Source of the DNA: Candidatus Dormiibacterota bacterium
GTDB taxonomy: Bacteria > Chloroflexota > Dormibacteria > Aeolococcales > Aeolococcaceae
Reading direction: 5' to 3'
NCBI GenBank assembly: GCA_963718525.1
Contig: OY970355.1
Span: 1,760,001-1,824,000 of the forward strand
DNA: 64,000 nt
In this document: positions 32,039 through 50,831 of the stretch, in pieces
Layout: the number at the start of each line of letters is the position of its first letter
Position numbering within the stretch: the stretch's first letter is position 1
Position numbers and translations under genes: made by a program
Notes under the pieces: generated by a model
Database searches by the model: none
What the model saw: the letters and a program-made list of their open reading frames with translations, nothing else
What the model was told of the DNA's origin: nothing

Positions 32039-34624
32039 TTAACTTTGGGCCGCCGCCTTCCTTGCGGCGGCGTGGCGCCGCCCGACTGAAGCTTTACCGG
32101 CTTCCACATCCTGAACGGCAGCCGGCTGAGGATTTGCAACGATATCGGCGGCCAGGGCCACAAGCGCGGCGGTGAAGCCCTGGCGATCTATGCGACCACT
32201 CGCGAAGTCTCGAGCCAGCCGTTCGAGTTGATAACCGAGGAGCGACGGAGCTGTCGGCGACTGAATCTGGAACACCCGCGGGTGCGCCGTCTGGACGCGG
32301 TGTTCATGATCGTAGATCAGCTCTTCGTGAAGCTTTTCCCCGGAACGGAGCCCTGTGTACTCGAGTGCGATGTCAACATGCGGCCGCAGCCCGCGTAGAC
32401 GGATCATCTTGTACGCGAGGTCTTCGATCCGTATGCGGTCGCCCATGTCGAGCATAAAGACATCATTCGCGACGCTCAGGCTAGCGGCCTCGACGATGAG
32501 CGCCGCCGCCTCCTCCGGATGCATGAAGTACCGCGTCATGTCGGTGTGGGTGATGGTCACCGGGCCGCCCAATTCGATTTGTCGCTCGAACGTTGGGATG
32601 ACGCTGCCCCGGCTCCCGAGCACATTGCCGAACCGCACCACGGTCATCCCTTCATCGGTTACGGGTGCGGCGTGGCCATTGCTCTTTGCCTCGCGCAACT
32701 CGTGCACCAGGATCTCGGCCATACGCTTGGTGGCGCCCATCACCGACGAGGGGTTCACTGCCTTATCGGTCGACACCAGCACGAAACGCCCAGAGCCGCA
32801 CTGCGCCGCGGCGTCAGCCATCACCCAAGTGCCCCACACGTTGGTCCACGCGGCTTCGTGCGGATACAACTCCATGAGCGGCACGTGCTTGTACGCAGCC
32901 ACATGGAAGATGATCTGCGGATGCTCGGTCCGCACAACATCGAGCATTCGTGCGCGATTGGTGACGTCGCCGACGACGATGGACAATTCCGCCTCGGCTC
33001 CGAGCGCCCTGATCTCGACCGCGAGATCATAAAGGCCGCTCTCGTTCATGTCGACGGCGACGATACGGGCCGGGCGGAGGCCCAGCATCTGGCGGATCAA
33101 CTCAGACCCGATCGATCCGCATGCTCCTGTCACAAGTACCGTCTGGCCACCTACCAGACCGCGGCAGCGCTCGTGGTCCAAAGCGGCCGCCTGGCGGCCG
33201 ATGAGATCCTCGGCTCTCATGTCGCGGAGCAGCGCCGCAGAGTAGCGATCGCCCATCCAGTTGACGAGGTCGTGCGCCACCTTGATCTGAGCAGCGGTGC
33301 CATGGGCAAAGGCCAGGATGTCGCGCATGTCGCTCCCGGTGGTACTCCCCATCGCCAACACAATGACGTCGACATTCTCCTTTGCGACGAAGGCCCGCAG
33401 AACGCCCCGTCCGCCGACCACCTTGATGCCGTGAACCGTGAGCCCGTGTTTGCTGGAATCGTCATCCAGGAAGCCAACAACCCGGTAGCGACGTCCGTCG
33501 GCGTGCGTTCGGAGCCGGCGGACGAGTAGCTGCCCGAGTTCGCCGGCGCCGTACACAACGGCACGCGTCGGCTGCCGAGGGCTCGACGACGACTGAGGGT
33601 TCACCAGGCCGGAGAGTGCATGTGGAATCCTGCTGCGATAGCGAAACACCACAAACCCGACCGCGCTGAAGCAACTGCCGACCAGGACAACACTCAGGGG
33701 AAGTGGGCGTAAGGGGGCACCGGGATGGAAGAGGTCAAAGAGCGTTGCCGCTCCGGTGGAGATTAACGCTGCCACAGCAATTGGAAGCACCTCAACACCC
33801 GCGGCGTACTGCCACGCGCGTCGGTGGAGCCGGAACCCCACGTTCACCAGCGCGAAACCGACAGCCGTGAGTGCGATGGCGCGCGCAGCAGCGGCGTCGC
33901 TCTCTGTTCCATACGGATGAGCGGCGTCGAGGAAGCGGAGGAGATAGACAAGGACGAAGCTCGCGGTCGCGATGATGGCGTCGGCAAGAAACCACGGGAG
34001 CGCCCTTCGCACGACGCGCACCAACACACCAAGGAGGCGCGCCATCAACCAACCGGCCGCGCGGGCAATGATCCAGACATCGGTTGCCACGGTACGGTGC
34101 TGGATGTAACGCAGCTCGACGAGGCGATCGCTTGCGACCCCCTCGTCGTTGTCAATTGGATCGCCGGTATTGCCTGCTGCGATCGACCGTCCGTGAGCGC
34201 GCCAGGCAGGGGAGACCAGTCCCGGCCGAACCTCCAGGAGCCGTGCTGCCGACGGCGTCAACCACGCGGAATCTGCGACGGTAGCGGGGCGCGGTCCAAC
34301 CATGCTGAGCTGGCCCCTGAGCACGTTAACAAGCTCAGGAAGTCCGGAAATGCCCAAGACGTCCAGGACGCGCCCTGCTCCACCCGATGACAGTCGGATG
34401 AGCCGGAATGGTTCTCCGCCCTTTCCTGCGCGCTCCTCGCGAAGGAACGCTCGGGAATGCAAGACCAGCTTCAGATAGATAGCAGCCAGGCCGATGATCG
34501 GGCTCGAGAGCGTGAGGGCGATGGCTGCAACCGCGAGGTCGAAGAGCCGCCCACCTCGGGTATCCCGTGCGATCACATACCTCCCTGCGCGCTCCGGCTC
34601 CCCTTCCCCGGTGGACCTTACCAA
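32039..34624 (-). CDS. CapD/PglF-like UDP-GlcNAc 4,6-dehydratase with N-terminal degenerate sugar-transferase domain
   Basis: VVYGAGELG, GFLDDD, TGACGSIGSEL, AAYKHVPLME, STDKAVNP, MGATKR, RFGNVLGSRGSV; N-terminus LPELVNVLRGQLSMVGPRP. Confidence 0.92.
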   Translation of the reverse strand: MVRSTGEGEPERAGRYVIARDTRGGRLFDLAVAAIALTLSSPIIGLAAIYLKLVLHSRAFLREERAGKGGEPFRLIRLSSGGAGRVLDVLGISGLPELVNVLRGQLSMVGPRPATVADSAWLTPSAARLLEVRPGLVSPAWRAHGRSIAAGNTGDPIDNDEGVASDRLVELRYIQHRTVATDVWIIARAAGWLMARLLGVLVRVVRRALPWFLADAIIATASFVLVYLLRFLDAAHPYGTESDAAAARAIALTAVGFALVNVGFRLHRRAWQYAAGVEVLPIAVAALISTGAATLFDLFHPGAPLRPLPLSVVLVGSCFSAVGFVVFRYRSRIPHALSGLVNPQSSSSPRQPTRAVVYGAGELGQLLVRRLRTHADGRRYRVVGFLDDDSSKHGLTVHGIKVVGGRGVLRAFVAKENVDVIVLAMGSTTGSDMRDILAFAHGTAAQIKVAHDLVNWMGDRYSAALLRDMRAEDLIGRQAAALDHERCRGLVGGQTVLVTGACGSIGSELIRQMLGLRPARIVAVDMNESGLYDLAVEIRALGAEAELSIVVGDVTNRARMLDVVRTEHPQIIFHVAAYKHVPLMELYPHEAAWTNVWGTWVMADAAAQCGSGRFVLVSTDKAVNPSSVMGATKRMAEILVHELREAKSNGHAAPVTDEGMTVVRFGNVLGSRGSVIPTFERQIELGGPVTITHTDMTRYFMHPEEAAALIVEAASLSVANDVFMLDMGDRIRIEDLAYKMIRLRGLRPHVDIALEYTGLRSGEKLHEELIYDHEHRVQTAHPRVFQIQSPTAPSLLGYQLERLARDFASGRIDRQGFTAALVALAADIVANPQPAAVQDVEAGKASVGRRHAAARKAAAQS

Positions 34625-34719: not shown

Positions 34720-35397
34720 TTGACAGTGAAGACACCATTTGGGATCTCTAGTCGAGGACGAGTCGCGAGGGGCTCGGTTGGAGTTTCGTCGTTGCCGCGC
34801 TCCGGATACCGTGGCAAGCGGCTCCTGGACCTTGCCTGCGTCTGCGTGCTTGCACCGCCCGCCGCCGCCATCGGCGCATTCTGCGCGATTGCGGTGCGAA
34901 TGACTTCATCCGGCCCTTGCCTTTTTCGCCAACAACGTGTGGGTCGAGACGGGCAACCATTCACCATTCTGAAGTTTCGTACCATGATCCACGCAGATAA
35001 TCCCCTCCATCCGGAAACGGACCGGATCACGACCGTCGGGGGGTGGCTGCGCCGGAGCTCATTTGACGAGCTGCCACAGCTCTGGAACGTCGTTCGCGGC
35101 GACATGAGCATGGTCGGACCCCGCCCGACCCTCGCATACCAAGTGGATCGTTACACGCCGAGGCAGCGCGGCCGGCTCTCAGTGCTTCCAGGAATCACTG
35201 GCCTAGCGCAGATTCGCGGGCGCAACGGTATCTCGTGGTCGCAGCGCATCGACTTCGACCTCGAATATGTTCAGCGTCAGAGCCTGCGACTGGATTTGAC
35301 CATCCTGTCTCTGACCCTTTTTGCCGTCCTCAAGCGCGAGGGGGTCGAGGGCCACCCGCGAGACGACCCGCTGGCTCGCGTTGACGATGGTGGATGA
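34720..35397 (+). CDS. Priming phosphoglycosyl transferase (PglC/WcaJ-type Bac_transf)
   Basis: KRLLD, FRQQRVGRDG, KFRTM, DELPQLWNV, MSMVGPRP, PGITGLAQ; start uncertain. Confidence 0.92.
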   Translation: MTVKTPFGISSRGRVARGSVGVSSLPRSGYRGKRLLDLACVCVLAPPAAAIGAFCAIAVRMTSSGPCLFRQQRVGRDGQPFTILKFRTMIHADNPLHPETDRITTVGGWLRRSSFDELPQLWNVVRGDMSMVGPRPTLAYQVDRYTPRQRGRLSVLPGITGLAQIRGRNGISWSQRIDFDLEYVQRQSLRLDLTILSLTLFAVLKREGVEGHPRDDPLARVDDGG

Positions 35398-36527
35398 TGG
35401 CCCCGATGCGAATCAAGCTCGCATGTCCTGACGTGGGCGACGAGGAGGCCGAGGCAGTCCGCCGCGTCCTGATGTCGGGCGTGCTGACCAACGGGCCTGC
35501 GATTCGAGAATTCGAGACCGCCTTTGCGCAGAGGCACCAGGTCGAGCACGCGATAGCCTTCGCCAACGGCACGGTCGCCCTCGCGGCGATGTATCTGGGC
35601 CTCGACATCGGACCAGGTGACGAGGTCATCGTCCCTTCAATGACCTTTATCTCCTCGGCGACGTCAGTGCTGCATGTGGGGGCGACACCCGTGTTTGCCG
35701 ACGTGCTACCAGACACGTTTAACGTCGATCCTCGTGACGTTCTGCAACGAATAACGCCGCGCACACGCGCAATACTCGCCGTCCATTACGGTGGTCAGCC
35801 AGCCGACATGGCTGAACTCTCCGACATCGCCCGCGATGCCGGCGTCGTGATGCTCGAGGATGCCGCCGAAGCCCACGGTGCTTCGTACCGCGGGCAGCCG
35901 GTCGGAGGGCTTGGCAAAGCCGCGATGTTCAGCTTTACCCCCACCAAGAACATCACGACCGGCGAGGGAGGGATCGTCACAACCAATGACGGTGACCTCG
36001 CCGCCCGTCTTCGGCTACTTCGCAACCACGGCCAGACGTCACTCTACCAACACGCAGTCCTGGGGTTCAACTGGCGCATGACCGAGATGCAGGCGGCCAT
36101 GGGCGTCGTTCAACTCGGTCGCCTCGACGATATCATCAGGCGAAAGCGCACGAACGCGACAACCTTCGGCGATCGGTTGCGCCTGATCCGCGGCGTGACA
36201 CCGCCAGCAGCGCAACCGGACCGAGAGCACGTCTACATGCTCTTCACGACCCTCCTGGACAGCCGTCGCGACGAGGTGCGGGATGCGATGCTCAGGGCCG
36301 GCGTCGAAGTGCGGCTGTACTTCCCGCCCGCACATCGGCAGCCCATCTTCGCCAACCGCCACGTGGATCTTCCAGTCACCGAAGACCTGAGCAGGCGGAT
36401 GCTCTCGCTGCCGTTCCATACGCGGTTAACGGGCCGACAGTTCGAGGATATTGCATCGACACTTGAAAGAGCGCTGGCCGGTGTCGGCGCGCATGAAACG
36501 TGCCGTGAACCGGCTTGTGATTGCTAG
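35394..36527 (+). CDS. DegT/DnrJ/EryC1/StrS PLP-dependent sugar aminotransferase
   Basis: NGTVAL, EDAAEAHG, FSFTPTKNITTGEGG with the PLP lysine. Confidence 0.93.
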   Translation: MMAPMRIKLACPDVGDEEAEAVRRVLMSGVLTNGPAIREFETAFAQRHQVEHAIAFANGTVALAAMYLGLDIGPGDEVIVPSMTFISSATSVLHVGATPVFADVLPDTFNVDPRDVLQRITPRTRAILAVHYGGQPADMAELSDIARDAGVVMLEDAAEAHGASYRGQPVGGLGKAAMFSFTPTKNITTGEGGIVTTNDGDLAARLRLLRNHGQTSLYQHAVLGFNWRMTEMQAAMGVVQLGRLDDIIRRKRTNATTFGDRLRLIRGVTPPAAQPDREHVYMLFTTLLDSRRDEVRDAMLRAGVEVRLYFPPAHRQPIFANRHVDLPVTEDLSRRMLSLPFHTRLTGRQFEDIASTLERALAGVGAHETCREPACDC

Positions 36528-36985
36528 CGCCGGTGGCGGTCGTTGCGACACCTCGTCGTCGAGGAGCGATGCCACTCGTAGCCGCGCTGGCGATCTGCTG
36601 GCCCGTCAGGTCGTGCGGCGCTATCAGCAAACGCATCTCGAACCACCTGCTGCTCGAGTGCCGACGCCGCCACCGAGGCCTGAGCCATTTGCTGGAGCTG
36701 ACCAGCTTTCATCGGTCCATGGCGGCTGCCCGGATTTGCAGAGTGGAGAAGGTCATGATCGACAGCCGGTCAGCGCCGGTAGGGTGCCGCAGCCGATGAC
36801 GACGGATCCTGGCACGGCGGCGCTGTCTCCCGGTCGGGTCGATCAGCGTCAGGACTGCCGTCGATCACGCCCCTGGCTACAGCCACCTGGCTCGGCCCCG
36901 ACGTGTCAGTTGCGTGTATTCCGAATAGATGCGCCAGACTACAGTCGTCCATGGAAGATTCGATTACGCGAAACGGGCTCCTGCC

Positions 36986-37474
36986 ATGAATTTGTGGAGC
37001 CGACACCTCGGCGGTGTGGATGGCGTCGAGGTCATTCCGGGCCTATGGATGGGGGCAGCTCCGAGTCGGCGCACGGCCCTCAGGCTTGCTCGTGCCGGCG
37101 TGACCCACGCTATCGATCTCCGCAGCTGCGGAGGCGCGGTGCCCGCGACCACTTGGCCAGAGGCCGTGTTCAAACACCGCTATCCCCTGGAGGAATATGA
37201 GGCCCCCGAGATCGTGGAATTGAGCCAGATGAGCAGCGAGGTCGCCAGCCTCGTCGCTCAGGGAGAGGTCGTTTATATCCACTGCCGCGCGGGTGTCCAG
37301 CGTGCACCCTTGGTCGCCTGTGCCGTCCTTATGCAGATGGGCTGGTCACTCGCTGATGCCTACCGCATGGTCAGTGCGAGGCGAGCGGCCACAGCCATGA
37401 GCGGAGACCAGTTGAGCGTGTTGCGGGAATTCGCGAATTGGTTGGGCAGCCAGGCGACCTCGACAACTCAATGA
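36986..37474 (+). CDS. Dual-specificity protein phosphatase family protein
   Basis: IPGLWMG...GVTHAIDL...VYIHCRAGVQRA (CX5R P-loop). Confidence 0.85.
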   Translation: MNLWSRHLGGVDGVEVIPGLWMGAAPSRRTALRLARAGVTHAIDLRSCGGAVPATTWPEAVFKHRYPLEEYEAPEIVELSQMSSEVASLVAQGEVVYIHCRAGVQRAPLVACAVLMQMGWSLADAYRMVSARRAATAMSGDQLSVLREFANWLGSQATSTTQ

Positions 37475-37544
37475 CAAGTGTGGCCCTGTGGCACGACAAT
37501 CATCTCTGCGGGACAAGAAGCCGATGGTCGAAGGGGATGAGAGG

Positions 37545-38312
37545 ATGATCAGAAGTTGGGCCGAGCATTCTCGGGCGTTCTCCGGAAGGTATGTTGCCGT
37601 CACGGGGGCACAAGGCGGAATCGGACAGGCTACGGCAAGGGCATTTGCCGAGGCCGGAGCCACCGTGATCACCATTGACCGGACGCTGGAAGAGGCCAAC
37701 CGCGCCGCGGCCCGGTTACCTCGAAGGACACCCAATGTAGCCCACGCACCGGTGGCGATGGATTTCGCCGAGTCGTCCTCCGTCGCCGAGGGATTACATC
37801 AGATTCGTTCAATCTCACGCAACATTGCGGCTCTCGTCAATGTAGCTGGGATGGCGGAGGATGCCCTCGTGCACATGGTCACTCCGGAATCCATTCGGCG
37901 GCACATGCAGATAAACTTCGAAGCCCATGTTCAGATCACGCAGTACGTCACCAGAATGATGCTGCGTTCAGGTGGGGGGTCGGTGGTTAACGTGTCGAGT
38001 GTGACAGGGATGGATGGGAATCCCGGCCAGTTGGCATACGGATCATCCAAGGCTGCGGTGCTGTCCGCCACCCGCACCTTGTCAATGGAACTGGCTTCAC
38101 GCGGCATCCGCGTGAATGCCGTTGCTCCCGGAATGATTGACACGGACATGAGCAGGGCTTTGGACGATGCGGGCAGGGATCGCATAATGCGGCGAGTCAG
38201 CATGAAACGAATCGGAGGGCCGGAGGAGGTTGCGGCGACGATTCTTTGGCTATGTTCGCCCGCTGCCTCGTATGTCACCGGGCAGACCCTGCGCATAGAC
38301 GGCTGCATGTGA
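37545..38312 (+). CDS. SDR oxidoreductase (FabG-like)
   Basis: TGAQGGIG, VNVAG, YGSSK, IRVNAVAPG. Confidence 0.9.
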   Translation: MIRSWAEHSRAFSGRYVAVTGAQGGIGQATARAFAEAGATVITIDRTLEEANRAAARLPRRTPNVAHAPVAMDFAESSSVAEGLHQIRSISRNIAALVNVAGMAEDALVHMVTPESIRRHMQINFEAHVQITQYVTRMMLRSGGGSVVNVSSVTGMDGNPGQLAYGSSKAAVLSATRTLSMELASRGIRVNAVAPGMIDTDMSRALDDAGRDRIMRRVSMKRIGGPEEVAATILWLCSPAASYVTGQTLRIDGCM

Positions 38313-39067
38313 TGGCGCATCGCCTCCTCGAAGGGCATCGGGTCCTCGTCACGGGCGCGAATCGCGGGATCGGGTGGGCGACGTGTCAGACGCTGGCTGC
38401 CAATGGCGCGCACGTTATAGGTGCCTCACGTTCCAGTGGTGTCGAGTTCCTAACACGGCTAGAGTCTTTGGGCAGCACGTACGGGGTCCAGGTAACGAAC
38501 GTGCAACTAGACCTGACCGACCCTGAATCCCTTAGGCTGGCGTTATCGTACGTACGCAAGTCGGAGGAACCACTTTCGGGTCTGGTCAATAATGCTGGCG
38601 TGACCTACAATGGGCTGTTGCAGATGTCCCCTCTAGAGGCCGCGCGCGATGTCTTTGAAACCAACTTCTTCGGGCTGCTGAGCCTCATGCAGGGCTGTGC
38701 GAAGCTCATGGCGCGGCAGCGTACCGGAAGCATCGTCAACGTGGCTTCCACGGCAGCTATCGACGCCAATCCCGGTAGGTCCATATACGGCGCCTCGAAG
38801 GCTGCCGTGATCACGCTGACCAAGGCGTCTGCACGCGAACTTGGGCCATTAGGTATCCGAGTGAATGCCGTAGCTCCAGGTGTGACCGAGACGGAGATGC
38901 TTGCGACCATGACCGATGAAGTGATCGCCGATGTAGAGAGAACTACAGACCTCGGTCGCCGAGGGCAACCCAGCGAGGTCGCCGAAGCAATCTGTTTTCT
39001 GCTCTCGCCCATGGCGTCCTACGTGAGCGGCCAGGTATTGCGAGTCGATGGCGGGATGCGGCCATGA
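38312..39067 (+). CDS. SDR oxidoreductase (FabG-like)
   Basis: TGANRGIG, VNNAG, YGASK, IRVNAVAPG. Confidence 0.9.
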   Translation: MAHRLLEGHRVLVTGANRGIGWATCQTLAANGAHVIGASRSSGVEFLTRLESLGSTYGVQVTNVQLDLTDPESLRLALSYVRKSEEPLSGLVNNAGVTYNGLLQMSPLEAARDVFETNFFGLLSLMQGCAKLMARQRTGSIVNVASTAAIDANPGRSIYGASKAAVITLTKASARELGPLGIRVNAVAPGVTETEMLATMTDEVIADVERTTDLGRRGQPSEVAEAICFLLSPMASYVSGQVLRVDGGMRP

Positions 39068-39904
39068 ATCTCGACGCTGTGACGGACGCTTCCTTGGCGG
39101 AAATAGCAGCCCGTTCCAGGAGGTCCGTGGTGAGCATTGGGCATGCCGCCGGTGGCATGGGGGCACATTTCGGGCCAGCGCTCTCGTTGATCGAGATAAT
39201 GGCCGTCGTATATGGCATTGCAGTTCGCCATTCGCCGATTGATCGCCTGAAACCGGATCGTGACCGAGTTCATCCTGAGCAAAGGGCATGGGAGCCTGGC
39301 GCTCTATGCGGTGCTTCACGAGTACGGATACATTGATGCAGCAGTCTTGGTCACGGCTGAGCAGGACGGAACCGTGTTACCGGGACAGCCCATCAGGAAC
39401 AGGGAGTTGGGCATCGAATTCTCCAGCGGAAGTCTCGGGATGGGCCTGTCCTTCGGTGTAGGTCTAGCGCTGTCCGCTCGGATGAGTGCTAGCGATCGCT
39501 CAATCTACGTTGTAATGGGCGACGGAGAGACCAACGAGGGCTCGGTATTGGAGGCAGCGATGTCAGCTTCTCACTTCGAGCTGGGACACCTGACGGCGAT
39601 CGTGGACGTCAATAGCCTGCAGTCCGATGGTCCCACCTCGGAGGTCATGGATTGTGACCTTCGTGCAATCTGGGGGGGCTTCGGCTGGGATGTGATCGAG
39701 GTGGATGGCCACTCAATTCCGGAACTAAGGGTGGCCCTTCTTCGTCCCGCTAGTTCGCGTCCTCGGTGCATTCTCGCCCACACGATCAAAGGAAAGGGTG
39801 TGTCGTTCATGGAAGCAGTATCGGAGTGGCACCACGGACGCATGACTGACGCACAGTTCGAGGCAGCCTCGCAAGAAGTTCACTTGGCAGATTTGGCCCC
39901 ATGA
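39064..39904 (+). CDS. Transketolase N-terminal (ThDP-binding) subunit, +1 frameshift near 39267
   Basis: GAHFGPALS...PDRDR in one frame; FILSKGH, GSLGMG, MGDGETNEG, HTIKGKG...WHH in the next. Confidence 0.85.
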
Positions 39905-40956
39905 AGATCCCATCCGCCAGGGGGCTGTCGCGGCTTGGACCCAGAGGCACATTTGGGGTCGCCCTCTTGGACGCGGCTACTGGAAACGATCGAATCGTCG
40001 GCCTCACGGCCGATTTGGCCATCACCGCTGGCATGGAGCGGTTCCGAGCTCAGATGCCCGAGCGCTTCGTCAACGTTGGGATAGCCGAGCAGAACATGGT
40101 GGGAATCGCCGCAGGTCTAGCCGATGATGGTTGGATCCCATTCGCAGTGACCTTTGCGAACTTTGCCGCCATGCGAAGTTGTGAGTTCGTCCGACATCAC
40201 CTTGGCTACATGCAGCAGAACGTCAAGATGGTGGGTATCGGAGCCGGATTTGCGATGGGACAATTCGGCACCACTCACTACTCCTTGGAGGACGTGGCTG
40301 TACTCAGGGCAGTCCCCAATCTGACCATCGTCAGTCCCGCAGACTGTGGTGAGGTGTACGAGGCGGTTCACGCGCTGTCGGTGTCCAGTTTCCCTGCCTA
40401 CCTGAGGCTCAGCGGGGTTCCGTCAATGCCTTCCGTCGCCCAAGAGGGGACCGAATTCCAAATCGGACGTGCTCGGGTACTCCGTGGTGGCTCAGACGTC
40501 ACTCTCGTCGCTACGGGCAGCATGGTCTCTGTTGCCCTTGGCGCGGCCTCTCTGATGTCGGGTCGGGGGCTTTCCGTTGGCGTCCTCAACATGCATACCA
40601 TCAAGCCTGTTGACGAGAAGGCACTTACCCGCCTTATGGGCCAGACAACCGCCCTAGTGACCGTCGAGGAACACTCAGTCTTGGGTGGGCTTGGTGGCGC
40701 TGTGGCTGAAGTCGTGGCCGCCATCCCCGGGGGACCGCCCGTCCTGCAACTCGGGGTACGTGATGCGTTCCCAAAGGTTGGTTCTTATCAATATGTCCTT
40801 GAACAGTGCGGGCTAACGGACCGGTCTGTTGCCGCCGCGGCCGAAGAGTGGCTCACAGCGATAAGCCGGCGGAGATCGCCCGCGGTCTGGGCAACAGCAA
40901 TCAGGCCGTCTGCAACCGGCGCGATCGCCGGCGACGCCGCGGGTTCGAGGGGCTGA
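39901..40956 (+). CDS. Transketolase C-terminal subunit
   Basis: NVGIAEQNM, GTTHYSLED, PAYLRL, HTIKP, VEEHSVLGGLG. Confidence 0.92.
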   Translation: MKIPSARGLSRLGPRGTFGVALLDAATGNDRIVGLTADLAITAGMERFRAQMPERFVNVGIAEQNMVGIAAGLADDGWIPFAVTFANFAAMRSCEFVRHHLGYMQQNVKMVGIGAGFAMGQFGTTHYSLEDVAVLRAVPNLTIVSPADCGEVYEAVHALSVSSFPAYLRLSGVPSMPSVAQEGTEFQIGRARVLRGGSDVTLVATGSMVSVALGAASLMSGRGLSVGVLNMHTIKPVDEKALTRLMGQTTALVTVEEHSVLGGLGGAVAEVVAAIPGGPPVLQLGVRDAFPKVGSYQYVLEQCGLTDRSVAAAAEEWLTAISRRRSPAVWATAIRPSATGAIAGDAAGSRG

Positions 40957-41048
40957 AACGCCCGGGAGAGGGGCGCCTCGCCAACTTCGCGGCCGAGCAA
41001 TCAAACGAGGCGACCATGTCCGCCGATCAAGAGGAGAACGGATCCAAA

Positions 41049-41309
41049 ATGAAGGCTGAAGAGGCTCTCAAGTTGGCCTTTGCCGAGGGTCTGGGGTTGC
41101 CCGTTGATGATGTGGACTGGCCCGCGCTAGCGTATCGCGGCATCCCTGAGTGGGATTCAGTAGCTCACATGCAGGTCGTTGCTGAGATCGAAGATGCCTT
41201 CGATATCATGCTGGAAATTGACGATGTCGTTGCGATGTCGAGCTTCGAGGTGGCCAAAGAGATTTTGACTAAGTATGGCGTTAGTTTCTCCGGTAACGAT
41301 GCTACTTGA
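41049..41309 (+). CDS. Acyl carrier protein
   Basis: Acidic 86 aa protein; WDSVAHM phosphopantetheine-Ser motif; EIEDAFDI. Confidence 0.88.
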   Translation: MKAEEALKLAFAEGLGLPVDDVDWPALAYRGIPEWDSVAHMQVVAEIEDAFDIMLEIDDVVAMSSFEVAKEILTKYGVSFSGNDAT

Positions 41310-42732
41310 CGCCCTCAGAGATACATCCGTAGTGCTGCTCGAGGCGTACTCGGGGCGGCCGGTCACTGCAGGGGCGATACGAAATCGAGCTGCTCAGATC
41401 AGCCGAGCGCCACGCAGGCTCGTCTTCCTCATGGCGGATGGAACCGCGGACTCGGCCCATTGGTTCTTAGCGCTCTTAGAGGCTCGGCATCCGGTGGCGC
41501 TGATTGACTCCGGCATCGCGTGGCCGATGATTGCAGACTTGATCGACCGATACCGGCCAGATCTCCTTGTCGATCCGGCCGGCAAGCACTCCAGGGAGCT
41601 TGCATCCTCGCCTCAGGGTGCTCGTGGTCGCCTCACCGAGCGTACCGTTTGGCTCGCGTCAGACGGCGGCCCGGAACCGCATACGGACTTGGCAGTCCTA
41701 CTAACGACGTCAGGGTCCACCGGGAGCCCTAAGTTCGTGCGCCTTTCCTCGAACAATATTCGCGTAAACGCCGAGCAGATTGTGGATTCCCTGGGCATCA
41801 CAGCGGATGATCGAGGTGTGACGGCGCTCCCGCTGTTCTACTCATTCGGGATGTCGGTGTTGACCTCCCATGCGCTGGCCGGGTCACCGGTCCTCGTGAC
41901 AGCCGCAAGCGTCGTCGAGGAGTCCTTCTGGTCCGATCTAGTTCGCTACGAAGTCTCCGTCCTGCCCGGAGTCCCGGCGACCTATTCGATGCTGAAGCGC
42001 TTGGGATTCGACCGGCGCGATCTTCCGCGACTGAGAGCGCTCATCCAGGCGGGCGGTCGGCTCGATCCGGAGCTTGTAACCTTCTTCCATCGTGTGATGA
42101 CGCGCCGGGGCGGACGTTTCTTCGTCATGTACGGGCAGACAGAAGCATCCCCGCGGATTTCGTGCCTGCCCTCCGAGCGCCTCCCGGAGAAGCTCGGCTC
42201 AGTCGGGCTTCCACTTCCAGGCGGTAAGCTGGCGATTCGTGGGAAGGATGGTGGCGAGGTGGGCGCCGGAACGACGGGTGAGGTCGTCTACCGGGGCCCG
42301 AACGTGATGATGGGCTATGCCGAATCCCGGGACGACCTGGCACTTGGTGATACTTGCGCGGCGGTCTTGGCCACTGGCGACCTGGGATACCTTGATGACG
42401 AGGGATTTCTGTATCTGACTGGCCGGTCCAACCGAATCTGCAAGCTGGCGGGGGGCCGAGTATCACTGGACGATATTGAGATCATGTCGGCGTGGATCCT
42501 GCGCGGCGAAGCCCAGGTCGCCGCCGTCGACGGCGGCGATCTAGGGGTGTCGTTATTCACAACGGCACTAGAACCGGCAGCCATCGATTTGCGACACGCG
42601 CTCGCGCGTGAGCTCAGGGTTCCTCCGAAGCTAATTGTCGTGTGCGCAGTCGACAGGATCCCGCAGTTGCCTAATGGGAAGACCGACTACGCAGCCTTGG
42701 AGCGCTTGGTCCGTGCTGGAGAGGCGAAGTGA
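41299..42732 (+). CDS. AMP-binding acyl-CoA/acyl-ACP ligase
   Basis: TTSGSTGSPK, MYGQTEA, ATGDLG, GRSNR, LPNGKTD. Confidence 0.92.
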   Translation: MLLDALRDTSVVLLEAYSGRPVTAGAIRNRAAQISRAPRRLVFLMADGTADSAHWFLALLEARHPVALIDSGIAWPMIADLIDRYRPDLLVDPAGKHSRELASSPQGARGRLTERTVWLASDGGPEPHTDLAVLLTTSGSTGSPKFVRLSSNNIRVNAEQIVDSLGITADDRGVTALPLFYSFGMSVLTSHALAGSPVLVTAASVVEESFWSDLVRYEVSVLPGVPATYSMLKRLGFDRRDLPRLRALIQAGGRLDPELVTFFHRVMTRRGGRFFVMYGQTEASPRISCLPSERLPEKLGSVGLPLPGGKLAIRGKDGGEVGAGTTGEVVYRGPNVMMGYAESRDDLALGDTCAAVLATGDLGYLDDEGFLYLTGRSNRICKLAGGRVSLDDIEIMSAWILRGEAQVAAVDGGDLGVSLFTTALEPAAIDLRHALARELRVPPKLIVVCAVDRIPQLPNGKTDYAALERLVRAGEAK

Positions 42733-43880
42733 GTAGTCTACCTGCCGCCTCCGCGTCCGAGTTGGATTCGGCCGGCGCCGCGACTTCTCCAGCTCTGGCT
42801 GAGCTCTTTGACAGGCCGCAGTTCTCGATTCCACAGGCTGAGAAGGAGGAACTCCTGCTTGGCGAGCTAACCCATATGGTTACTCGGCATAGGTTGGCGT
42901 GCGATCCATATAGGCGGATCACGGACGCCGTCGGCAGGCCACTGCAAACCTACGCTTCATTGGCCGAATTGCCTTACCTCCCCGTTTCATTGTTCAAGTC
43001 GCATCAATTGTCCAGCGTCCCCGCTGAGGAAGTCTTCAGAGTGATGGCGTCTTCGGGTACTACGGGGCAGGCAGTCTCACAGATAATCCTTGATCGCAAG
43101 ACAGCAGATCTGCAGTCAAGAGCTTTGTCAGTTGTGATGGCCCGGGTCCTTGGCAGTCAGCGAAGCCCCATGGTTATCATAGACACGCCGAGCGTGGTCA
43201 ACAGGAGCAAGTTGTTCTCCGCGCGAAGCGCGGGCGTCCTGGGGATGCTGCCTTTTGGCCGACGTCACTTCTACGCACTCAACGATGACATGGAACTGGA
43301 CGATGCGGGATTGCGGGAATTCCTAGACCGTCACACCGGGCAACGCATCCTGCTTTTTGGCTTCACGTTTATGGTCTGGAAGTATTTCCTTCAGGCCCTG
43401 GCGAAACGCGGGGCTGTCGATATTGATCTTTCGCTTGGTGTCCTCATCCATTCAGGTGGGTGGAAGAAGTTGGCTGAGGAGGCAGTGAGTAACGCACAAT
43501 TCAAGTGTGCATTGAAGGAGGCAACGGGGCTCCGCCGAGTGCACAACTTCTATGGCATGGCCGAGCAAGTCGGTTCGGTGTTCTTGGAGGGTGATGACGG
43601 CTTTCTGTACCCCCCGAGCTTTGCTGACGTGATTGTGCGCGATCCACAGACGTGGGAGCCCGCGCCGGACGGCACGCCTGGCGTCGTTGAGATCCTCTCA
43701 GTTCTCCCGCGCTCCTACCCGGGCCACATCCTGTTGACGGAAGATCGTGGAGTGGTTCACGGAGTTGGTGAGCCGACCGGCGGCTGGGCCGGAAAGCAAT
43801 TGGAAATCCTCGGTCGCCTGCCGAAATCCGAGCTGCGGGGATGCTCCGACACACACGCCTTCGATACGGCTTCAAGGTGA
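42729..43880 (+). CDS. luxE: LuxE-family acyl-protein synthetase
   Basis: LPVSLFK, SSGTTG, HSGGWK, FYGMAEQ, SYPGH.LLTED, C-terminal ELRGCS. Confidence 0.88.
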   Translation: MSSLPAASASELDSAGAATSPALAELFDRPQFSIPQAEKEELLLGELTHMVTRHRLACDPYRRITDAVGRPLQTYASLAELPYLPVSLFKSHQLSSVPAEEVFRVMASSGTTGQAVSQIILDRKTADLQSRALSVVMARVLGSQRSPMVIIDTPSVVNRSKLFSARSAGVLGMLPFGRRHFYALNDDMELDDAGLREFLDRHTGQRILLFGFTFMVWKYFLQALAKRGAVDIDLSLGVLIHSGGWKKLAEEAVSNAQFKCALKEATGLRRVHNFYGMAEQVGSVFLEGDDGFLYPPSFADVIVRDPQTWEPAPDGTPGVVEILSVLPRSYPGHILLTEDRGVVHGVGEPTGGWAGKQLEILGRLPKSELRGCSDTHAFDTASR

Positions 43881-45169
43881 CCACTCTGGAGGATAAACCT
43901 CGCGATGCAGGCACAAGCGAGTTGCCACAGAGTAGTGCGGTTCGCGTCCAGCAACTGCTTCCTACGCGAGAATCGGTCAACCTTATCGACTTGCTAGCTC
44001 AACTGAACTCCACGCCTGTGGTGGCCCCGTTCGATGCATCACGTACGGAATTCATCGCAGACGTTTGCCGACGATTAGGACGCCGGAGCCGCCACCATCC
44101 TGAAGCGCAGGCACTCGCCTTCTGGATGCGGAAGTCGGAGGTGCATCGACTCGCTCAGTCGTTCGTTGAGCTGGGTTCCGACCAGACCGTCCTTATGCCC
44201 CGCGGAACGGTATTCCATATCCCGCCCGCGAACGTCGACACCCTCTTCGCCTACTCGTGGGGACTATCAACACTGGTTGGCAATCGGAATATCGTCCGCC
44301 TCTCCTCCCGCGCAACAGATCAGTCGAACCTCATCGTCGACACCATCCGCGAAGTGCTGGTCGATCATCCGTTGGTAGCTGGTTCATCCTCCATGATCAC
44401 CTACGGCCACGAGGATGCGGCAACGGCCGCGATTTCAGCTAGCTGCGATGTAAGAGTAATCTGGGGTGGTGACGCAACGGTGAATCGGATTAGATCAATA
44501 CCAATCCCCGCGCATGCAACTGAGCTGGTATTTGCAGATCGGTTTTCCATCGCCGGAATCGGCATTCAAGCGTATCAGGCGCTCGATGCACAAGCACGTA
44601 ATCGCTTGGCTGAGTTATTCTTCGTCGACGCGTACTGGTTCGATCAGTTGGGTTGCTCGTCCGCCAGACTGCTGCTCTGGGTTGGCGCCGACGATCCACG
44701 GCCATCTGCGAGCGACTTCTATGATCGGGTCCGCGCGGTTGTGCGCAAGAGGGGGTATGCGGTAGATGCCTCTACAGCCATCGCCAAGCTCGCGCAAGCC
44801 TATCGCACGATGATCGATGCCGAGGTTTCCGGTTACATTGCTCGGGAGAATACGCTAGCCGTGCTCGAGATGGCATCCTTTCCCGACGTTCGCGGGGAGT
44901 TCTGCGGGGCCGGACTCTTCTACCAACTTCACGCCGGGGACTTGGCCGAAATTGTACCTCACATTCGGCGAGCCGACCAGACCTTCGCGACCTTCGGCAT
45001 CCCCGAGGCGGATTTGCGCAGATTAGTCTGGAATCTTCGGGGGCGCGGGATTGATCGAATTGTTCCCTTCGGTCAGGCACTGCATTTCAGCCGATACTGG
45101 GATGGATACGACCTTCTTGCCGAGCTTACGAGAAGAACCACGATTTCGTGGCGGCAGCAGCTTCCATGA
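43877..45169 (+). CDS. luxC: LuxC-family acyl-CoA reductase
   Basis: PRGTVFHIPPANV, GNRNIVRLSSR, IWGGDATV, FDQLGCSS, RGIDRIVPFG...WDG. Confidence 0.88.
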   Translation: MTTLEDKPRDAGTSELPQSSAVRVQQLLPTRESVNLIDLLAQLNSTPVVAPFDASRTEFIADVCRRLGRRSRHHPEAQALAFWMRKSEVHRLAQSFVELGSDQTVLMPRGTVFHIPPANVDTLFAYSWGLSTLVGNRNIVRLSSRATDQSNLIVDTIREVLVDHPLVAGSSSMITYGHEDAATAAISASCDVRVIWGGDATVNRIRSIPIPAHATELVFADRFSIAGIGIQAYQALDAQARNRLAELFFVDAYWFDQLGCSSARLLLWVGADDPRPSASDFYDRVRAVVRKRGYAVDASTAIAKLAQAYRTMIDAEVSGYIARENTLAVLEMASFPDVRGEFCGAGLFYQLHAGDLAEIVPHIRRADQTFATFGIPEADLRRLVWNLRGRGIDRIVPFGQALHFSRYWDGYDLLAELTRRTTISWRQQLP

Positions 45170-45822
45170 TTCCGGGACTAGACGTTGCGATAATCGGCGC
45201 GGGTGGATTCGGCCGGGAAGTTCTACAGTATTGCCGAGACGCTATCGACGTCGGTTGGCCTCATCGAGTCGTGGGTTTCATCGATGACCGCTCTGACGTG
45301 CTCCAACAGTTCGATGTATCCGTCCCGGTCGTCGGCGGACTCACGGACGTTGGAAGAGTCGACGCGCGAGCCTTCATCATCGCGATGGGCGACCCCATTT
45401 TGAGACGCAGAATGGCCGACGTCGTTGCCGACACTGGCGGCATTTTGGTTTCGTTGATTCACCCAACTGCATACTTGTCACCCACTGCGCAGATCGGCAG
45501 CGGTACGTTGCTCTGCCCATACAGTCTGATAGCGGCCAATTCCACTTTGGGATCGAACGTCGCGGTCAACGTCTATGCCTCCGTGGGTCACGACGCCCGT
45601 GTTGGAGACCACTGCGTGATCTCGTCATACTCGGCGGTGACTGGAGCGGTGTCTCTGGGTAGCGAGTCCTTTTTGGGCACTCACTGCACGATTACCCCCG
45701 GAAGGACAATCGGCCGCCGCAGCAAGGTCTCCGCCGGCTCGACTGTCACGCGCGACGCACCGGCCGGGTCGTTGCTTGTTGGGAACCCGGCCAAGGGTCG
45801 GGTCATGTATCCGGTGAATTGA
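45166..45822 (+). CDS. NeuD/PglD-family hexapeptide-repeat sugar acyltransferase
   Basis: IIGAGGFGRE, GFIDD, LIHPTA, SVGHD, VGNPAK. Confidence 0.9.
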   Translation: MIPGLDVAIIGAGGFGREVLQYCRDAIDVGWPHRVVGFIDDRSDVLQQFDVSVPVVGGLTDVGRVDARAFIIAMGDPILRRRMADVVADTGGILVSLIHPTAYLSPTAQIGSGTLLCPYSLIAANSTLGSNVAVNVYASVGHDARVGDHCVISSYSAVTGAVSLGSESFLGTHCTITPGRTIGRRSKVSAGSTVTRDAPAGSLLVGNPAKGRVMYPVN

Positions 45823-46227
45823 TCGACCTCCGGATGGACGTCGAGTTGATCGCGATAGCGTTGGGGCGCCTCGGAGATATCCCTGGGGTGGGCGTGGATG
45901 TCGAAGCGATCGACCGGTTCACGAAGCCAGATGGGCGGCTCTTGACCGCTACGGAGTTGGCGTATTGTGCCGCCCAGGCTGAACCGGCCCAGAGTTCGGG
46001 CCGGCCGTTGGTGCGCCAAGGAAGCAGTGTCGAAGGCGTGCGCTAAGTACTTGCAGTTGGCCCTGCGCGAGATCGAGATCCGTTCTGACCCTTCTGGCCG
46101 ACCGGTCGTCGTGCTTCCGGACAGAGCGACCGAAGTTGGGCTTGCGGCCGAAGTGTCGATCGCCCACGCAGCCGGAGCGGCCATAGCAGTAGCGGTCGCC
46201 GGGGTTCGACCAAATGCCGAGTGCTGA
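45819..46227 (+). CDS. acpS: Holo-ACP synthase (phosphopantetheinyl transferase), frameshifted near 45997
   Basis: GVGVDVEAIDRF...ELAYC in one frame; AGRWCAKEAVSKA...SGRP...VSIAH in the next. Confidence 0.82.
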
Positions 46228-46373
46228 GACCTGCGGATCGTCGGCGCAGTTGAGTGCGGGTGCACTGGTGGGAGCTATCACCGTGCGTGTCGGGCATGCG
46301 CTTGACTTGCTACCACAACCGGATCGTCTGTGAAGGCTACGACTACGCGGTGTTCCGCCCTTCGCCGCCCCGA

Positions 46374-47597
46374 ATGCTAGCCGCCACCGCCGTGCACGAA
46401 GAGCGTTCACCACGCGCCCGGGTCCTCATCGCCGTGACAGTTCCCGCATTTGCCGACGTGCTGATGCGAGGCCAGTTTGCATGGCTGAAGAAGCGGGGCT
46501 GGGATATCACGCTGGTCTCCTCTCCAGGACCTGAGCTAGCGACGGTGGCGCGGCGAGAAGGAGTCGCGGTCGAAGAGCTCTCAATGTCTAGATACATCTC
46601 CCTGGCCTCGGATCTGCGAGCGTTGTGGTCGTTCATCTCTCTTCTGCGCCGCCGCCGTCCGCAGCTCACGCATGTGAACACTCCAAAGGCCGGCTTCATA
46701 GGGGAACTCGCCAGCGTTCTGACAGGCGTCCCGTGCCGCGTTTACACACTTATGGGGCTGCGCCTCGAGACCGCTCGCGGTTTTCAGCGAGCCGTGCTGT
46801 GGTTCACTGAGTGGGTGGCATGTCGCTGTGCCCATGTCGTGATTGCTGTTAGCCCGAGCCTCGCTGAGCGGGCCGTCGCAGTGGGCGTCGTGCGACGCCG
46901 AAAGGTGCTGACGTTTGGTCTTGGCAGCAACAACGGTGTCGACGCCGCACGGTTCATCCCAACGCCCGAGCGGATCGCCATGGCCAATCGGCAACGGCGT
47001 GCGTGGGGGATCGTTGCTGAGGCCCCGGTGATCGGATTCGTGGGACGAATTGTGGACGACAAGGGTATCAAGGAGTTGATCGAGGCGTTCCAAGTCGTCC
47101 GCGCGGCGCGTCCTGACGCTCAGTTGCTGATGGTCGGCGGCATTGAGCCCGGGCTGTCCGCAACAACGCAAGCGACCCTCGACTCACCGGGGATCGTCGT
47201 CACAAATTTGCTAGAGGACACGAACATCGCTCACCTCGTTATTGATGTCCTGGTGCTGCCGACTTATCGCGAGGGCTTTCCCAACGTCCCGCTTGAAGCC
47301 GCCGCCGCTGAACGCCCAGTTGTGACCACGACTGCGACCGGGGCCGTCAACTCCGTCATCGACGGCAAGACGGGCCTCCTCGTGCCCCCCGGCGACCCGG
47401 ATTCGCTCGCGAAGGCAATCCTGATGCTGATCGAAAACCCGGAGCGTGCTCGGACTATGGGGCGGGCGGGACGCCAGTGGGTCGAGAGCGAGTTCCGGCA
47501 AGAGCGGATCTGGCAGGATATTGAAAACACTTACGTCCGGCTGCTGACCGATCGCTCTGGTAGAGGTGGATTGTCTAGTACTCGACGCTCGCCATGA
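46374..47597 (+). CDS. GT4 glycosyltransferase (PglA/CapM-like)
   Basis: HVNTPKAG, GFVGRIVDDKG, LPTYREGFPNVPLEA, DGKTGLLVP. Confidence 0.9.
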   Translation: MLAATAVHEERSPRARVLIAVTVPAFADVLMRGQFAWLKKRGWDITLVSSPGPELATVARREGVAVEELSMSRYISLASDLRALWSFISLLRRRRPQLTHVNTPKAGFIGELASVLTGVPCRVYTLMGLRLETARGFQRAVLWFTEWVACRCAHVVIAVSPSLAERAVAVGVVRRRKVLTFGLGSNNGVDAARFIPTPERIAMANRQRRAWGIVAEAPVIGFVGRIVDDKGIKELIEAFQVVRAARPDAQLLMVGGIEPGLSATTQATLDSPGIVVTNLLEDTNIAHLVIDVLVLPTYREGFPNVPLEAAAAERPVVTTTATGAVNSVIDGKTGLLVPPGDPDSLAKAILMLIENPERARTMGRAGRQWVESEFRQERIWQDIENTYVRLLTDRSGRGGLSSTRRSP

Positions 47598-49307: not shown

Positions 49308-50831
49308 TTGACGCGCCTCATCGTCAACTCGCCAGAGTGGGTCGAGCACAGAGTCATGTCGCGCCGACAAGCGGCACTCGTCGCGCACGTTGTTGTTTCA
49401 GCCGTACTGTCTGGTGTCACGCTGGTTGGGGCGGCTGAATTCCCAGTGGGGCCAGCGCTCGTTTGGTGGGACTGCTTGATGCTTTCCCTCATAAGTATCT
49501 GGCTTGTCGTCTCGTGGCGATTTGCACGCGGCAGTCTCTTCAATCCATATGGGCTGTTCTTGTTTTCTACGCTTGCTTTCAACGCTGGGCAAGTACCCCT
49601 CCAAGTGTTCGGCCTGAACGACAACGGACTCCTGCGGGGTCAATTCACAGCCTATGAGTTACACGCGTCGCTACTCTTCATTGGAGCATGCCTGATCGGT
49701 CTGCAGTTAGGTGCCCTCTTGCGCCTTCAGCTCTCAGGAGCACCGCTGACCGATGGTGGCTCGGTACGAGGCGTGGCGGGCGACGCGGCCGCATGTCGGC
49801 GAGTCGGTCTGGTGATGCTGTGCGTCGGCGCAGTACCGGCCTTCATAGTCCTGACGCGCTCTGTCGGCCTCGCCAACCTAGGTGGTTACATCGCGATTTA
49901 TGCACAACAGGCGAGTACGAGCTTTGATGCTGCGCCGCAAGTTCTAGCTTCGTTCCTACTCCCTGGTGCTTTCTTTCTTCTAGCCGGCAGCGAGCGAGCC
50001 CGCCGCTGGGTGTATCTATCCGGCGCGATCGTAATCGTATACATGTCACTTCACTTGTATATCGGCGACCGGGCGAACGCGTTTCTGCCAGTCATCGCAT
50101 GGCTGTGGATCTACACGAACGTAGTGAGGAGACTCCCGGGGAGGTTGCTCCTAATCGGGGCTATTGTGACTGTCATTGTGATATTTCCGGTGGTTGGTCA
50201 GCTCCGGAACCTTACTGCAAGCGGCAGAGTAGAGCTAGGCGTTGTCGCGGCCTTTCAGTCGGTAAACAACCCCGTACTTGCGACCGTGTCGGAGACAGGG
50301 GGGTCAATGGAAACCGTCGTAGCGACGATGATACTGATACCAGAGCGTCGGCCGTTCGATGTCGGAGTGGGGTATGCATACGCCCTCCTGACTATCGTGC
50401 CCAATCTCTTCTGGGCAGTCCATCCGTCGATAGCGCATGGCAGCTACGACGATTGGCTGGTCGCCGTTTTTGCCCCGACTGTTGCCGCAGCCCACGGGGG
50501 ATTGGGCTTCTCCTATCTCGCCGAGGCATACGCGAACTTCGGATGGCTGGGTTTCACTATTCCATTCATTTTGGGATTCATGGTGGTGTGGCTGGAAGAT
50601 TGGGCCCGCGGACGCGGAGTCAACTCCCGCTACGCAGCCGTCGGTGCCTGCTTGCCCGCGCTGTTGTTCTGGGCACGAGCCGAAGCGTCGTTTGAGATTC
50701 GCACCTTCATTTGGTACGCTGCCATCCCATTCTTTGCTGTCATGCTGCTTTCGAGGCGCTCGCGCCGGGTGGATAGAATTGCGGTAGAAGCACTACAATC
50801 GAGCCGTAGCAGCGTCGGCCCCGGCATATGA
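49308..50831 (+). CDS. wzy: Wzy-type polysaccharide polymerase
   Basis: ~11-12 TMs, GDR motif, large loop ending GLGFSYLAEAYANFG; inside a polysaccharide locus. Confidence 0.82.
   Translation: MTRLIVNSPEWVEHRVMSRRQAALVAHVVVSAVLSGVTLVGAAEFPVGPALVWWDCLMLSLISIWLVVSWRFARGSLFNPYGLFLFSTLAFNAGQVPLQVFGLNDNGLLRGQFTAYELHASLLFIGACLIGLQLGALLRLQLSGAPLTDGGSVRGVAGDAAACRRVGLVMLCVGAVPAFIVLTRSVGLANLGGYIAIYAQQASTSFDAAPQVLASFLLPGAFFLLAGSERARRWVYLSGAIVIVYMSLHLYIGDRANAFLPVIAWLWIYTNVVRRLPGRLLLIGAIVTVIVIFPVVGQLRNLTASGRVELGVVAAFQSVNNPVLATVSETGGSMETVVATMILIPERRPFDVGVGYAYALLTIVPNLFWAVHPSIAHGSYDDWLVAVFAPTVAAAHGGLGFSYLAEAYANFGWLGFTIPFILGFMVVWLEDWARGRGVNSRYAAVGACLPALLFWARAEASFEIRTFIWYAAIPFFAVMLLSRRSRRVDRIAVEALQSSRSSVGPGI

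Follow-up and report, generated by a model that had tools for sequence, protein, structure and literature searches.

Proteins of the LuxC and LuxE families accompany amino-sugar genes in several described systems, with which we compare here a gene cassette (positions 34720..47597) in a 64,000-nucleotide stretch, hereafter the window, from the genome of a Candidatus Dormiibacterota bacterium of the phylum Chloroflexota (GCA_963718525.1, contig OY970355.1, positions 1,760,001 to 1,824,000). In Vibrio cholerae O1, the tetronate genes wbeK-O, also designated rfbK-O (VC0248-VC0252), go with N-(3-deoxy-L-glycero-tetronyl)perosamine (PMC3441752, PMC9915646). This set, which is credited as a whole with the N-acyl group on a 4-amino-4,6-dideoxy sugar and comprises a LuxC/LuxE protein (wbeN), a 471-residue protein with an ATP-binding domain (wbeL) and a reductase, was overlooked in a preliminary description of the window that knew of no defined product for similar genes. 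The pathway was reportedly first proposed in a 1995 paper in Gene, and we presume that the set also holds an acyl carrier protein (ACP) and a hexapeptide acyltransferase. The content of such a tetronate-type module is present in the window, namely an ACP, an AMP-ligase, LuxC and LuxE, a reductase and an acyltransferase beside genes for a 4-amino-6-deoxy sugar. The V. cholerae set differs in that LuxC and LuxE are fused, an iron alcohol dehydrogenase takes the place of the short-chain dehydrogenase/reductase (SDR), there is no transketolase and the sugar is GDP-perosamine; its pathway is homology-based too, and its likeness to the window is judged from the gene descriptions. Judging from gene content and comparative sequence analysis, we consider it probable that the window cassette supplies an acyl side chain and that a hydroxylated acyl group, extended by a transketolase, would be placed onto a 4-amino-6-deoxy-HexNAc.

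Flagellin glycosylation islands of Aeromonas group II and Enterobacteriaceae contain a five-gene core of ACP, FabG, AMP-synthetase, luxE and luxC, which was read there as fatty-acid synthesis for a possible liposugar (PMC7874193, PMC4875605). The same core lies next to an amino-sugar pathway in those islands, and 25 of the 80 related loci described below share their setting of pseudaminic acid (Pse) type. Unlike the window, the islands have no transketolase in their published descriptions, begin with the ACP gene and belong to a pseudaminic acid and flagellin context, whereas the window genome has no flagellin match. The transketolase-bearing form of the cassette is in print as well, as annotation only, for Dickeya zeae (PMC4522980, PMC7575072). 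By description, the D. zeae cluster has the same content, including a split transketolase, two FabG-like SDRs, an ACP, a hexapeptide acetyltransferase and a 4-aminotransferase; it differs in lying beside fliC, with flagellin as the presumed target, in having the aminotransferase annotated as vioA and in carrying an FkbM methyltransferase. One of the D. zeae papers judged the cluster unrelated to flagella (PMC4522980 / PMC7575072). The preliminary description had left room for the cassette being already characterised: it has been printed as annotation, and no biochemical characterisation was found in our literature search, from whose coverage subscription journals were mostly absent. The window thus holds a further instance of a known cassette family, in the polysaccharide locus of an uncultured soil bacterium, and the earlier interpretation is right in outline and overstated in novelty.

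Gene identities were assigned by Pfam and NCBIfam profile searches of 57 ORF translations from the window, some of which overlap one another. The run opens with a small PglC-like phosphoglycosyl transferase (PGT; 34720..35397; Bac_transf, 5.8e-56), a DegT/PseC/PglE-type sugar 4-aminotransferase (35394..36527; PF01041, 4.4e-120; best NCBIfam match PseC, 292 bits, under its cut-off) and a dual-specificity phosphatase (DSP; 36929..37474; DSPc, 4.2e-12). Two FabG-like SDRs follow (37488..38312 and 38246..39067, the true start of the second probably being near 38312), both of the type that accompanies transketolases in the SDR tree presented below, and then the two subunits of a split transketolase, the N subunit (TK-N; 39064..39904; Transketolase_N), which binds thiamine diphosphate (ThDP), and the C subunit (TK-C; 39901..40956; Transket_pyr and Transketolase_C). 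Next come a dedicated ACP (41016..41309; a weak PP-binding match, E 0.0025), an ANL-family AMP-ligase (41275..42732; AMP-binding, 1.2e-44), a LuxE-type acyl-protein synthetase (42729..43880; PF04443, 1e-48, 166.6 bits against a cut-off of 24.9) and a LuxC-type acyl-thioester reductase (43841..45169; PF05893, 1.8e-23, 83.5 bits against a cut-off of 21). The run closes with a PglD/PerB/VioB (NeuD-like) amino-sugar N-acyltransferase (45148..45822; TIGR03570, 182.7 bits against a cut-off of 160.8), an AcpS-type phosphopantetheinyl transferase (45834..46227) and a GT4 glycosyltransferase (46254..47597; Glycos_transf_1, 1.1e-30). Every gene named in the preliminary description was recovered on the plus strand in the order given there, with four-base overlaps at several junctions, and its observation that luxAB, luxD, ketosynthase and FkbH are missing agrees with zero matches to these families among the scanned translations.

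Outside this span, on the minus strand, a PglF-type UDP-HexNAc 4,6-dehydratase (32039..34624; Polysacc_synt_2, 1.3e-98, residues 496-788; PseB/FnlA-type NCBIfam matches) completes a bacillosamine-type (PglF/E/D/C) set together with DegT, the PglD-like acyltransferase and the small Bac_transf PGT, and would provide the 4-keto-6-deoxy sugar. This 861-residue protein has an extra N-terminal Bac_transf-like domain (residues 26-190, 2.3e-21); its counterpart in the related locus L011 matches from residue 182 onward only, so that the fusion is not common to both.

A genome scan seeded with LuxE retrieved 80 related loci (44-74% identity) from Actinomycetota, Bacillota, Pseudomonadota, Planctomycetota, Acidobacteriota and other phyla. 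In tblastn searches the AMP-ligase, LuxE and LuxC were present in all 80 and SDRs in 66, while a PglD-like gene was found in 26, AcpS in 6 and the transketolase pair also in 6 (L011, L022, L033, L045, L059 and L069; 6 of 62 when the count is confined to loci flanked by 5 kb or more on each side). The recurrent core of these loci is ACP, AMP-ligase, LuxE and LuxC, and the split transketolase is an optional add-on to it. Clustering of 1129 ORFs, with Pfam assignment of cluster representatives, placed a GNAT cluster in 26 loci and a NeuB/Pse set in 25; around the cassette in the latter 25 lie PseB, PseC, a GNAT, a cytidylyltransferase, NeuB and often Maf, and in other loci a PglD-like gene stands immediately after LuxC. 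The core usually lies beside a pathway for a 4-amino-4,6-dideoxy sugar, with its 4-aminotransferase, plus an N-acyltransferase, and it adjoins 4-aminotransferases with PglD-like or GNAT acyltransferases in three different sugar pathways. This recurrent neighbourhood is the best support for the cassette supplying an alternative N-acyl group. L011, from an Acidimicrobiaceae metagenome-assembled genome (MAG), repeats ten genes of the window in the same order (SDR-SDR-TKN-TKC-ACP-ligase-LuxE-LuxC-PglD-AcpS) at 49-70% identity and has an orthologue of the GT4 gene at 38% identity; the arrangement of the ten is therefore not due to chance. LuxE-LuxC fusions of ~755-790 residues are common among the relatives. 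In two proteins, P0023 and P0031, an AMP-binding ligase is fused to LuxE, a hint that the cassette's two adenylating enzymes act next to each other.

The acyltransferase bears on what is transferred to the sugar. Its closest solved relative is the perosamine N-acetyltransferase PerB (4EA7, 1.5e-24), followed by VioB and PglD, and its catalytic His aligns with the PerB residue mutated in 4EAA. Since these homologues are acetyl-CoA enzymes, the window enzyme could be thought to acetylate only and to yield ordinary diNAcBac, the product on the ACP being used elsewhere, for example in an O-acyl decoration or a separate metabolite; the 54 of 80 loci without a PglD-like match would agree with such a separation. 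Against this, the PglD-like gene sits directly between LuxC and AcpS in the window and in L011, L008 and L009, and most of the loci lacking it have a GNAT beside the cassette instead (the GNAT cluster covers 26 loci). We regard plain acetylation as rather unlikely.

Residues expected of an acyl-activating and reducing system are retained. The window ACP belongs to the same family as a 79-residue cassette ACP in which the DS phosphopantetheine site is found in 52/52 sequences, mostly in a WDS(V/I)AHM-like context, and it carries the WDS motif of the family; the AMP-ligase is a probable acyl-ACP ligase. In Photobacterium, LuxE accepts the acyl group on Cys364 (TRxxKGCxLS) and LuxC uses the catalytic Cys296 (PMC9157457). 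The LRGCSD segment of the window LuxE aligns with QKGCSL of Photobacterium LuxE (7XC6_E), a C-terminal [KR]GC being present in 65/65 relatives, and Cys272 of the window LuxC, in the motif DQLGC, falls in a column that is Cys in 71/71. The LuxC-LuxE fatty acid reductase complex of luminous bacteria (7XC6) is thus of the same families with both catalytic cysteines conserved in the window, although similarity is low (LuxC, E 0.0081; LuxE, 1.5e-16) and the window scan gave no luxAB or luxD. Because the luminous-bacteria enzymes reduce myristic acid (PMC9157457), a fatty aldehyde or alcohol, as in the liposugar proposed for the Aeromonas and Enterobacteriaceae islands, might be expected here as well. 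A ketosynthase and the dehydratase and enoyl reductase of fatty-acid type were all missing among the window ORFs scanned, the V. cholerae counterpart goes with a C4 acid, and the masses left unexplained in the Aeromonas glycan, 376 and 102 Da, are not those of a lipid (PMC7874193). A lipid product is accordingly improbable in our judgement, and the substrate of the cassette LuxC and LuxE is probably short and polar, not myristate.

The transketolase itself appears to have been remodelled. The best solved match of TK-C is the C chain of the split transketolase of Carboxydothermus hydrogenoformans (6YAJ, 2.1e-68), which has the same two-chain form. Landmark residues were read from an alignment of the window enzyme and the six other cassette enzymes with Escherichia coli TktA (NC_000913.3), whose numbering is used here. 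H26, D155, N185, E411 and H473 are kept in 7/7 cassette transketolases and H66 and H261 in 6/7, the L059 enzyme being broken at those two positions; the window enzyme keeps all seven residues and has Gln for H100. With these ThDP-binding and catalytic residues in place, the cassette enzyme still looks like a ketol transferase for a C1-hydroxylated donor and not like DXS. The acceptor side is different. In canonical transketolases H461 and R358 bind the phosphate of the substrate, R520 belongs with the phosphate-binding residues as well, and D469 reads the 2-hydroxyl of the acceptor. R358 is kept in 5/7 cassette enzymes, but H461, D469 and R520 are kept in 0/7, being replaced by G/S/R/K, F/I/S and G/A/S, respectively (Gly, Phe and Gly in the window). 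All four of these residues are present in the controls, E. coli TktA and the 633-residue transketolase encoded elsewhere in the window genome (C1:1498553-1500454), and H461, D469 and R520 have their counterparts in the C. hydrogenoformans enzyme, unlike in the cassette enzymes. In E. coli transketolase, S385 contacts the substrate phosphate, and an S385Y/D469T/R520Q variant was evolved stepwise from phosphorylated to non-phosphorylated aldehydes (PMC5073344).

The altered pocket extends beyond the cassettes. A search at E <= 1e-30 gave 1794 cluster representatives at 50% identity, and the signature was scored in the 150 closest: 73 have lost all three residues, 35 show the canonical set, 40 a mixture and 2 gaps. 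The loss is seen in 22 of the 25 closest representatives, and its presence in 73/150 identifies a sizeable natural subfamily, not a one-off. A search of the ESM Atlas with TK-C gave generic transketolase/DXS clusters only.

The transketolase pair occupies the place between the SDR gene(s) and the ACP/ligase genes, co-directional with them, in the window and in five of the six further transketolase-bearing loci. The exception is L033, where an SDR-TKN-TKC unit immediately follows LuxC and is encoded on the opposite strand. The sugar routes around these loci vary. Kurthia zopfii (ATCC 33403, L022) and a Lysinibacillus have flagellin/Maf/Pse islands, and the Lysinibacillus locus also contains an FkbM methyltransferase; Saccharibacillus has a dTDP-sugar/Arn-like set, Selenomonadaceae have one with Wzy_C, and the set is of Bac type in both the window and L011. 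A quick IQ-TREE analysis of 59 cassette SDRs grouped 46 from transketolase-free loci in one clade (SH-aLRT 98), and all 12 SDRs from transketolase loci fell outside it. Mapped onto FastTree trees of LuxE, the transketolase label requires 5 changes, with all 65 rows and with the 53 well-flanked rows alike. On these phylogenies LuxE appears to follow the host group, and the transketolase and its own SDR appear to come and go together, replacing the ordinary SDR. Such a swap suggests that both options are rivals for a common intermediate, the aldehyde made by LuxC, which would either be reduced to the alcohol or receive a C2 ketol and then undergo ketoreduction.

This pattern bears on two other roles that the preliminary description had offered for the transketolase. 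One is the addition of a C2 branch to a 4-keto sugar by YerE-like chemistry. Branched sugars are indeed among the products of ThDP enzymes, and the adjoining genes provide a 4-keto sugar; yet in loci of Pse, dTDP-sugar/Arn-like and Bac type alike the transketolase keeps to the acyl genes and co-varies with the SDR, not with the sugar genes, and DegT needs the same 4-keto group. We find a branch on the sugar unlikely. The other is the loading of a glycolyl unit onto the ACP, for which the quinocarcin and naphthyridinomycin pathways are precedents and which the neighbouring transketolase-like and ACP genes would suit. That chemistry requires a lipoyl/E2-type partner, a family with no match among the scanned ORF translations of the window, and it would leave LuxE, LuxC and the ligase without a job, which makes it quite improbable. 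The idea of a ketosynthase-free line that builds a hydroxylated acyl unit for the amino sugar fared better and is partly supported: it fits the conservation of the core, its neighbours and the position of a transketolase with an altered pocket inside the acyl module.

The steps of the acyl side-chain pathway that we favour can be outlined as follows. The PglF-like dehydratase and the DegT aminotransferase, to judge from family membership, would make UDP-4-amino-4,6-dideoxy-HexNAc. LuxE would adenylate a small carboxylic acid, probably a hydroxy-dicarboxylic acid such as L-malate, and hand the thioester to LuxC for reduction to the aldehyde. The split transketolase would then move a two-carbon ketol onto this non-phosphorylated aldehyde without an alpha-hydroxyl, and the SDRs of transketolase type would reduce the new ketone; in transketolase-free cassettes a single SDR would instead reduce the aldehyde to the alcohol at that step. 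The AMP-ligase is predicted to load the remaining carboxyl onto the dedicated ACP, made holo by AcpS, and the PglD/PerB-like enzyme to N-acylate the 4-amino group, after which the small PGT would put the sugar on undecaprenyl phosphate and the GT4 and Wzy enzymes would build the polymer.

Several points weigh against this pathway. Every solved relative of the acyltransferase (PerB, VioB, PglD) is named as an acetyltransferase, so that the enzyme may use acetyl-CoA only. We can only guess at the substrate acid, ketol donor and acyl donor. The order of steps may also differ, given that TabE, an enzyme of a LuxC cluster, reduces acyl-ACP directly (preprint 10.1101/2025.08.11.669332). In the transketolase alignment the S385 column falls in a gap and was left unscored, and the R520 column shifts between alignments (G or V) but is never R. 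Both phylogenies come from fast methods, a quick tree for the SDRs and FastTree for LuxE. Finally, the GT2 gene downstream of the cassette is disrupted by an insertion sequence (IS) remnant described below, and the locus may not make the full polymer.

A more specific version of the pathway can be put forward tentatively, and we hold it to be possible rather than probable: the cassette family may be a two-option machine that works on one C4 precursor, the window polymer then carrying a 4-N-(3-deoxyhexonoyl) amino sugar. In cassettes without transketolase, L-malate reduced at C4 would give 2,4-dihydroxybutyryl, which is the V. cholerae tetronate. The computed increment of this group (C4H6O3, 102.03 Da) equals the unexplained 102 Da moiety of Aeromonas piscicola, whose reported glycan masses are 102 and 376 Da (PMC7874193), and 316.13 - 42.01 + 102.03 = 376.14 Da, by our own arithmetic and 316 reference, equals its pseudaminic acid derivative. 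In cassettes with transketolase, malate semialdehyde and a C2 ketol would give 2,4,6-trihydroxy-5-oxohexanoate and, upon ketoreduction, 2,4,5,6-tetrahydroxyhexanoate. The nonulosonic acid on Treponema denticola flagellin is described as bearing a 2-methoxy-4,5,6-trihydroxy-hexanoyl group (PMC13439194), that is, the skeleton of 2,4,5,6-tetrahydroxyhexanoyl plus one O-methyl, and the FkbM methyltransferases of the Lysinibacillus locus and the D. zeae cluster would supply the methoxy group. An acceptor with a CH2 beside the carbonyl, and hence no 3-hydroxyl, would explain the loss of D469.

In the window, TK-N and AcpS are each spread over two reading frames, and with the disrupted GT2 downstream this could be taken to mean that the cassette is decaying and that both genes are pseudogenes. 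We compared positions 38900-46400 with contigs of four public sequencing runs (X1-X4, Logan). In X1, which is possibly the source sample and then not independent, a single contig of 36,963 bases holds the stretch; X2 comes from another sample, and both are one base shorter than the window at 39269 (TK-N) and at 45995 (AcpS). X3 and X4, which hold ~8% diverged relatives from peat metagenomes, are both one base shorter at 45995 as well; X3 is also one base shorter at 39267, where X4 has no coverage. Without the extra base, TK-N is an open frame of 279 residues, and in L011 and other relatives TK-N and AcpS are intact in a single frame. The frameshifts are therefore assembly errors, the remaining cassette genes are open, and the cassette is not decaying; the pseudogene explanation seems to us very improbable, even with the reservation about X1. 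All four runs also have the substitution 40748 A>G, which brings the count to about three single-base assembly errors in 7.5 kb. Both insertions are within GAGTTC. A systematic basecalling error at GAGTC was considered and set aside, as the genome shows no more than a mild deficit of GAGTC (4674 against ~5659 expected), and the context is taken as coincidence. Errors of this kind in other parts of the assembly could create further false frameshifts and may play a part in the completeness figure of the genome given below. In the Selenomonadaceae MAG with locus L059, TK-N (6671-7419) and the AMP-ligase (8700-9987) are each in two pieces; both are whole in the sister MAG with L069, and the broken genes are probably due to assembly error or recent decay.

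The run lies inside a polysaccharide locus, delineated by Pfam matches, at ~30-64 kb of the window. Its further content includes two DUF4012 genes bracketing the locus (30235-32037 and 61750-63699), a Wzy-type polymerase (49308..50831, plus strand; O-ag_pol_Wzy, 1e-40), more glycosyltransferases, a second PglF-like gene, a second DSP-type phosphatase (DSPc, 56259-56705) and a Wzz/ParA-type tyrosine-kinase-like gene (Wzz/BY-kinase, 60008-61807). That the cassette belongs to a Wzy-dependent surface-polysaccharide locus is part of the explanation that we favour and is, like it, probable. The genome is a single contig of 3.34 Mb that is 88.9% complete by markers, and neither flagellin (Flagellin_N) nor LpxC was found in it, which points to a polysaccharide as the target, and neither to flagellin nor to lipopolysaccharide. 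Nor did NeuB, Maf or flagellin have a match in the window, which sets it apart from the flagellin islands. Third-position GC is 0.63-0.78 in the polysaccharide locus (0.63-0.75 over 28000-56000) against 0.85-0.92 in most clearly housekeeping genes upstream, not all upstream ORFs reaching those values, and is consistent with acquisition from outside. No LuxE was found in 24 genomes of the same genus, the one match (E 9.3e-4, 18.5 bits) not being a LuxE, and among 400 other sampled genomes of the phylum one had a LuxE at E <= 1e-30 (34% identity). This near-absence suggests that the locus is accessory and was probably acquired.

The DSP, which the preliminary description had listed in the run, has no counterpart in the 80 related loci (tblastn) and is probably a regulatory phosphatase, perhaps a partner of the Wzz/BY-kinase, rather than an enzyme of the pathway. 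With two DSP-type phosphatases and one kinase-like gene, the locus may hold a phosphatase/kinase control pair with an unusual type of phosphatase. The 401-base gap between DegT and the DSP gene (36528-36928) gave no Pfam match (ORFs 36521-36799 and 36430-37200). Promoter-like sites (5 against 3.4 +/- 1.8 expected) and terminator-like sites (11 against 8.9 +/- 3.3) within 34400-49400 carry no information. The GT2 gene after GT4 (47594-48916) has its GT2 domain in the first ~100 residues only (profile positions 2-84 of 168), and an rve_3 integrase-core remnant (4.5e-22, 47937-48494) lies over this stretch in another frame. The gene seems to have been cut by an IS fragment; a search for inverted repeats around the remnant gave one 16-nt pair only and no clear IS ends.

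Antigenicity, phage receptors and the assembly of flagella are all shaped by unusual N-acylation of surface amino sugars, and the assignment of the enzymes responsible still consists of guesses from homology that go back to 1995. The transketolase of the add-on is a ketol transferase that has been remodelled in nature, at the same positions that enzyme engineers mutate, and its exchange together with its own reductase makes it a plug-in at the aldehyde step. The two options lead to a prediction testable by mass, +162.05 Da on the carrier protein in cassettes with transketolase against +102.03 Da in those without. The window organism is an uncultured soil bacterium; the prediction can be tested in carriers that grow in culture, among them Kurthia zopfii ATCC 33403 and Dickeya zeae.

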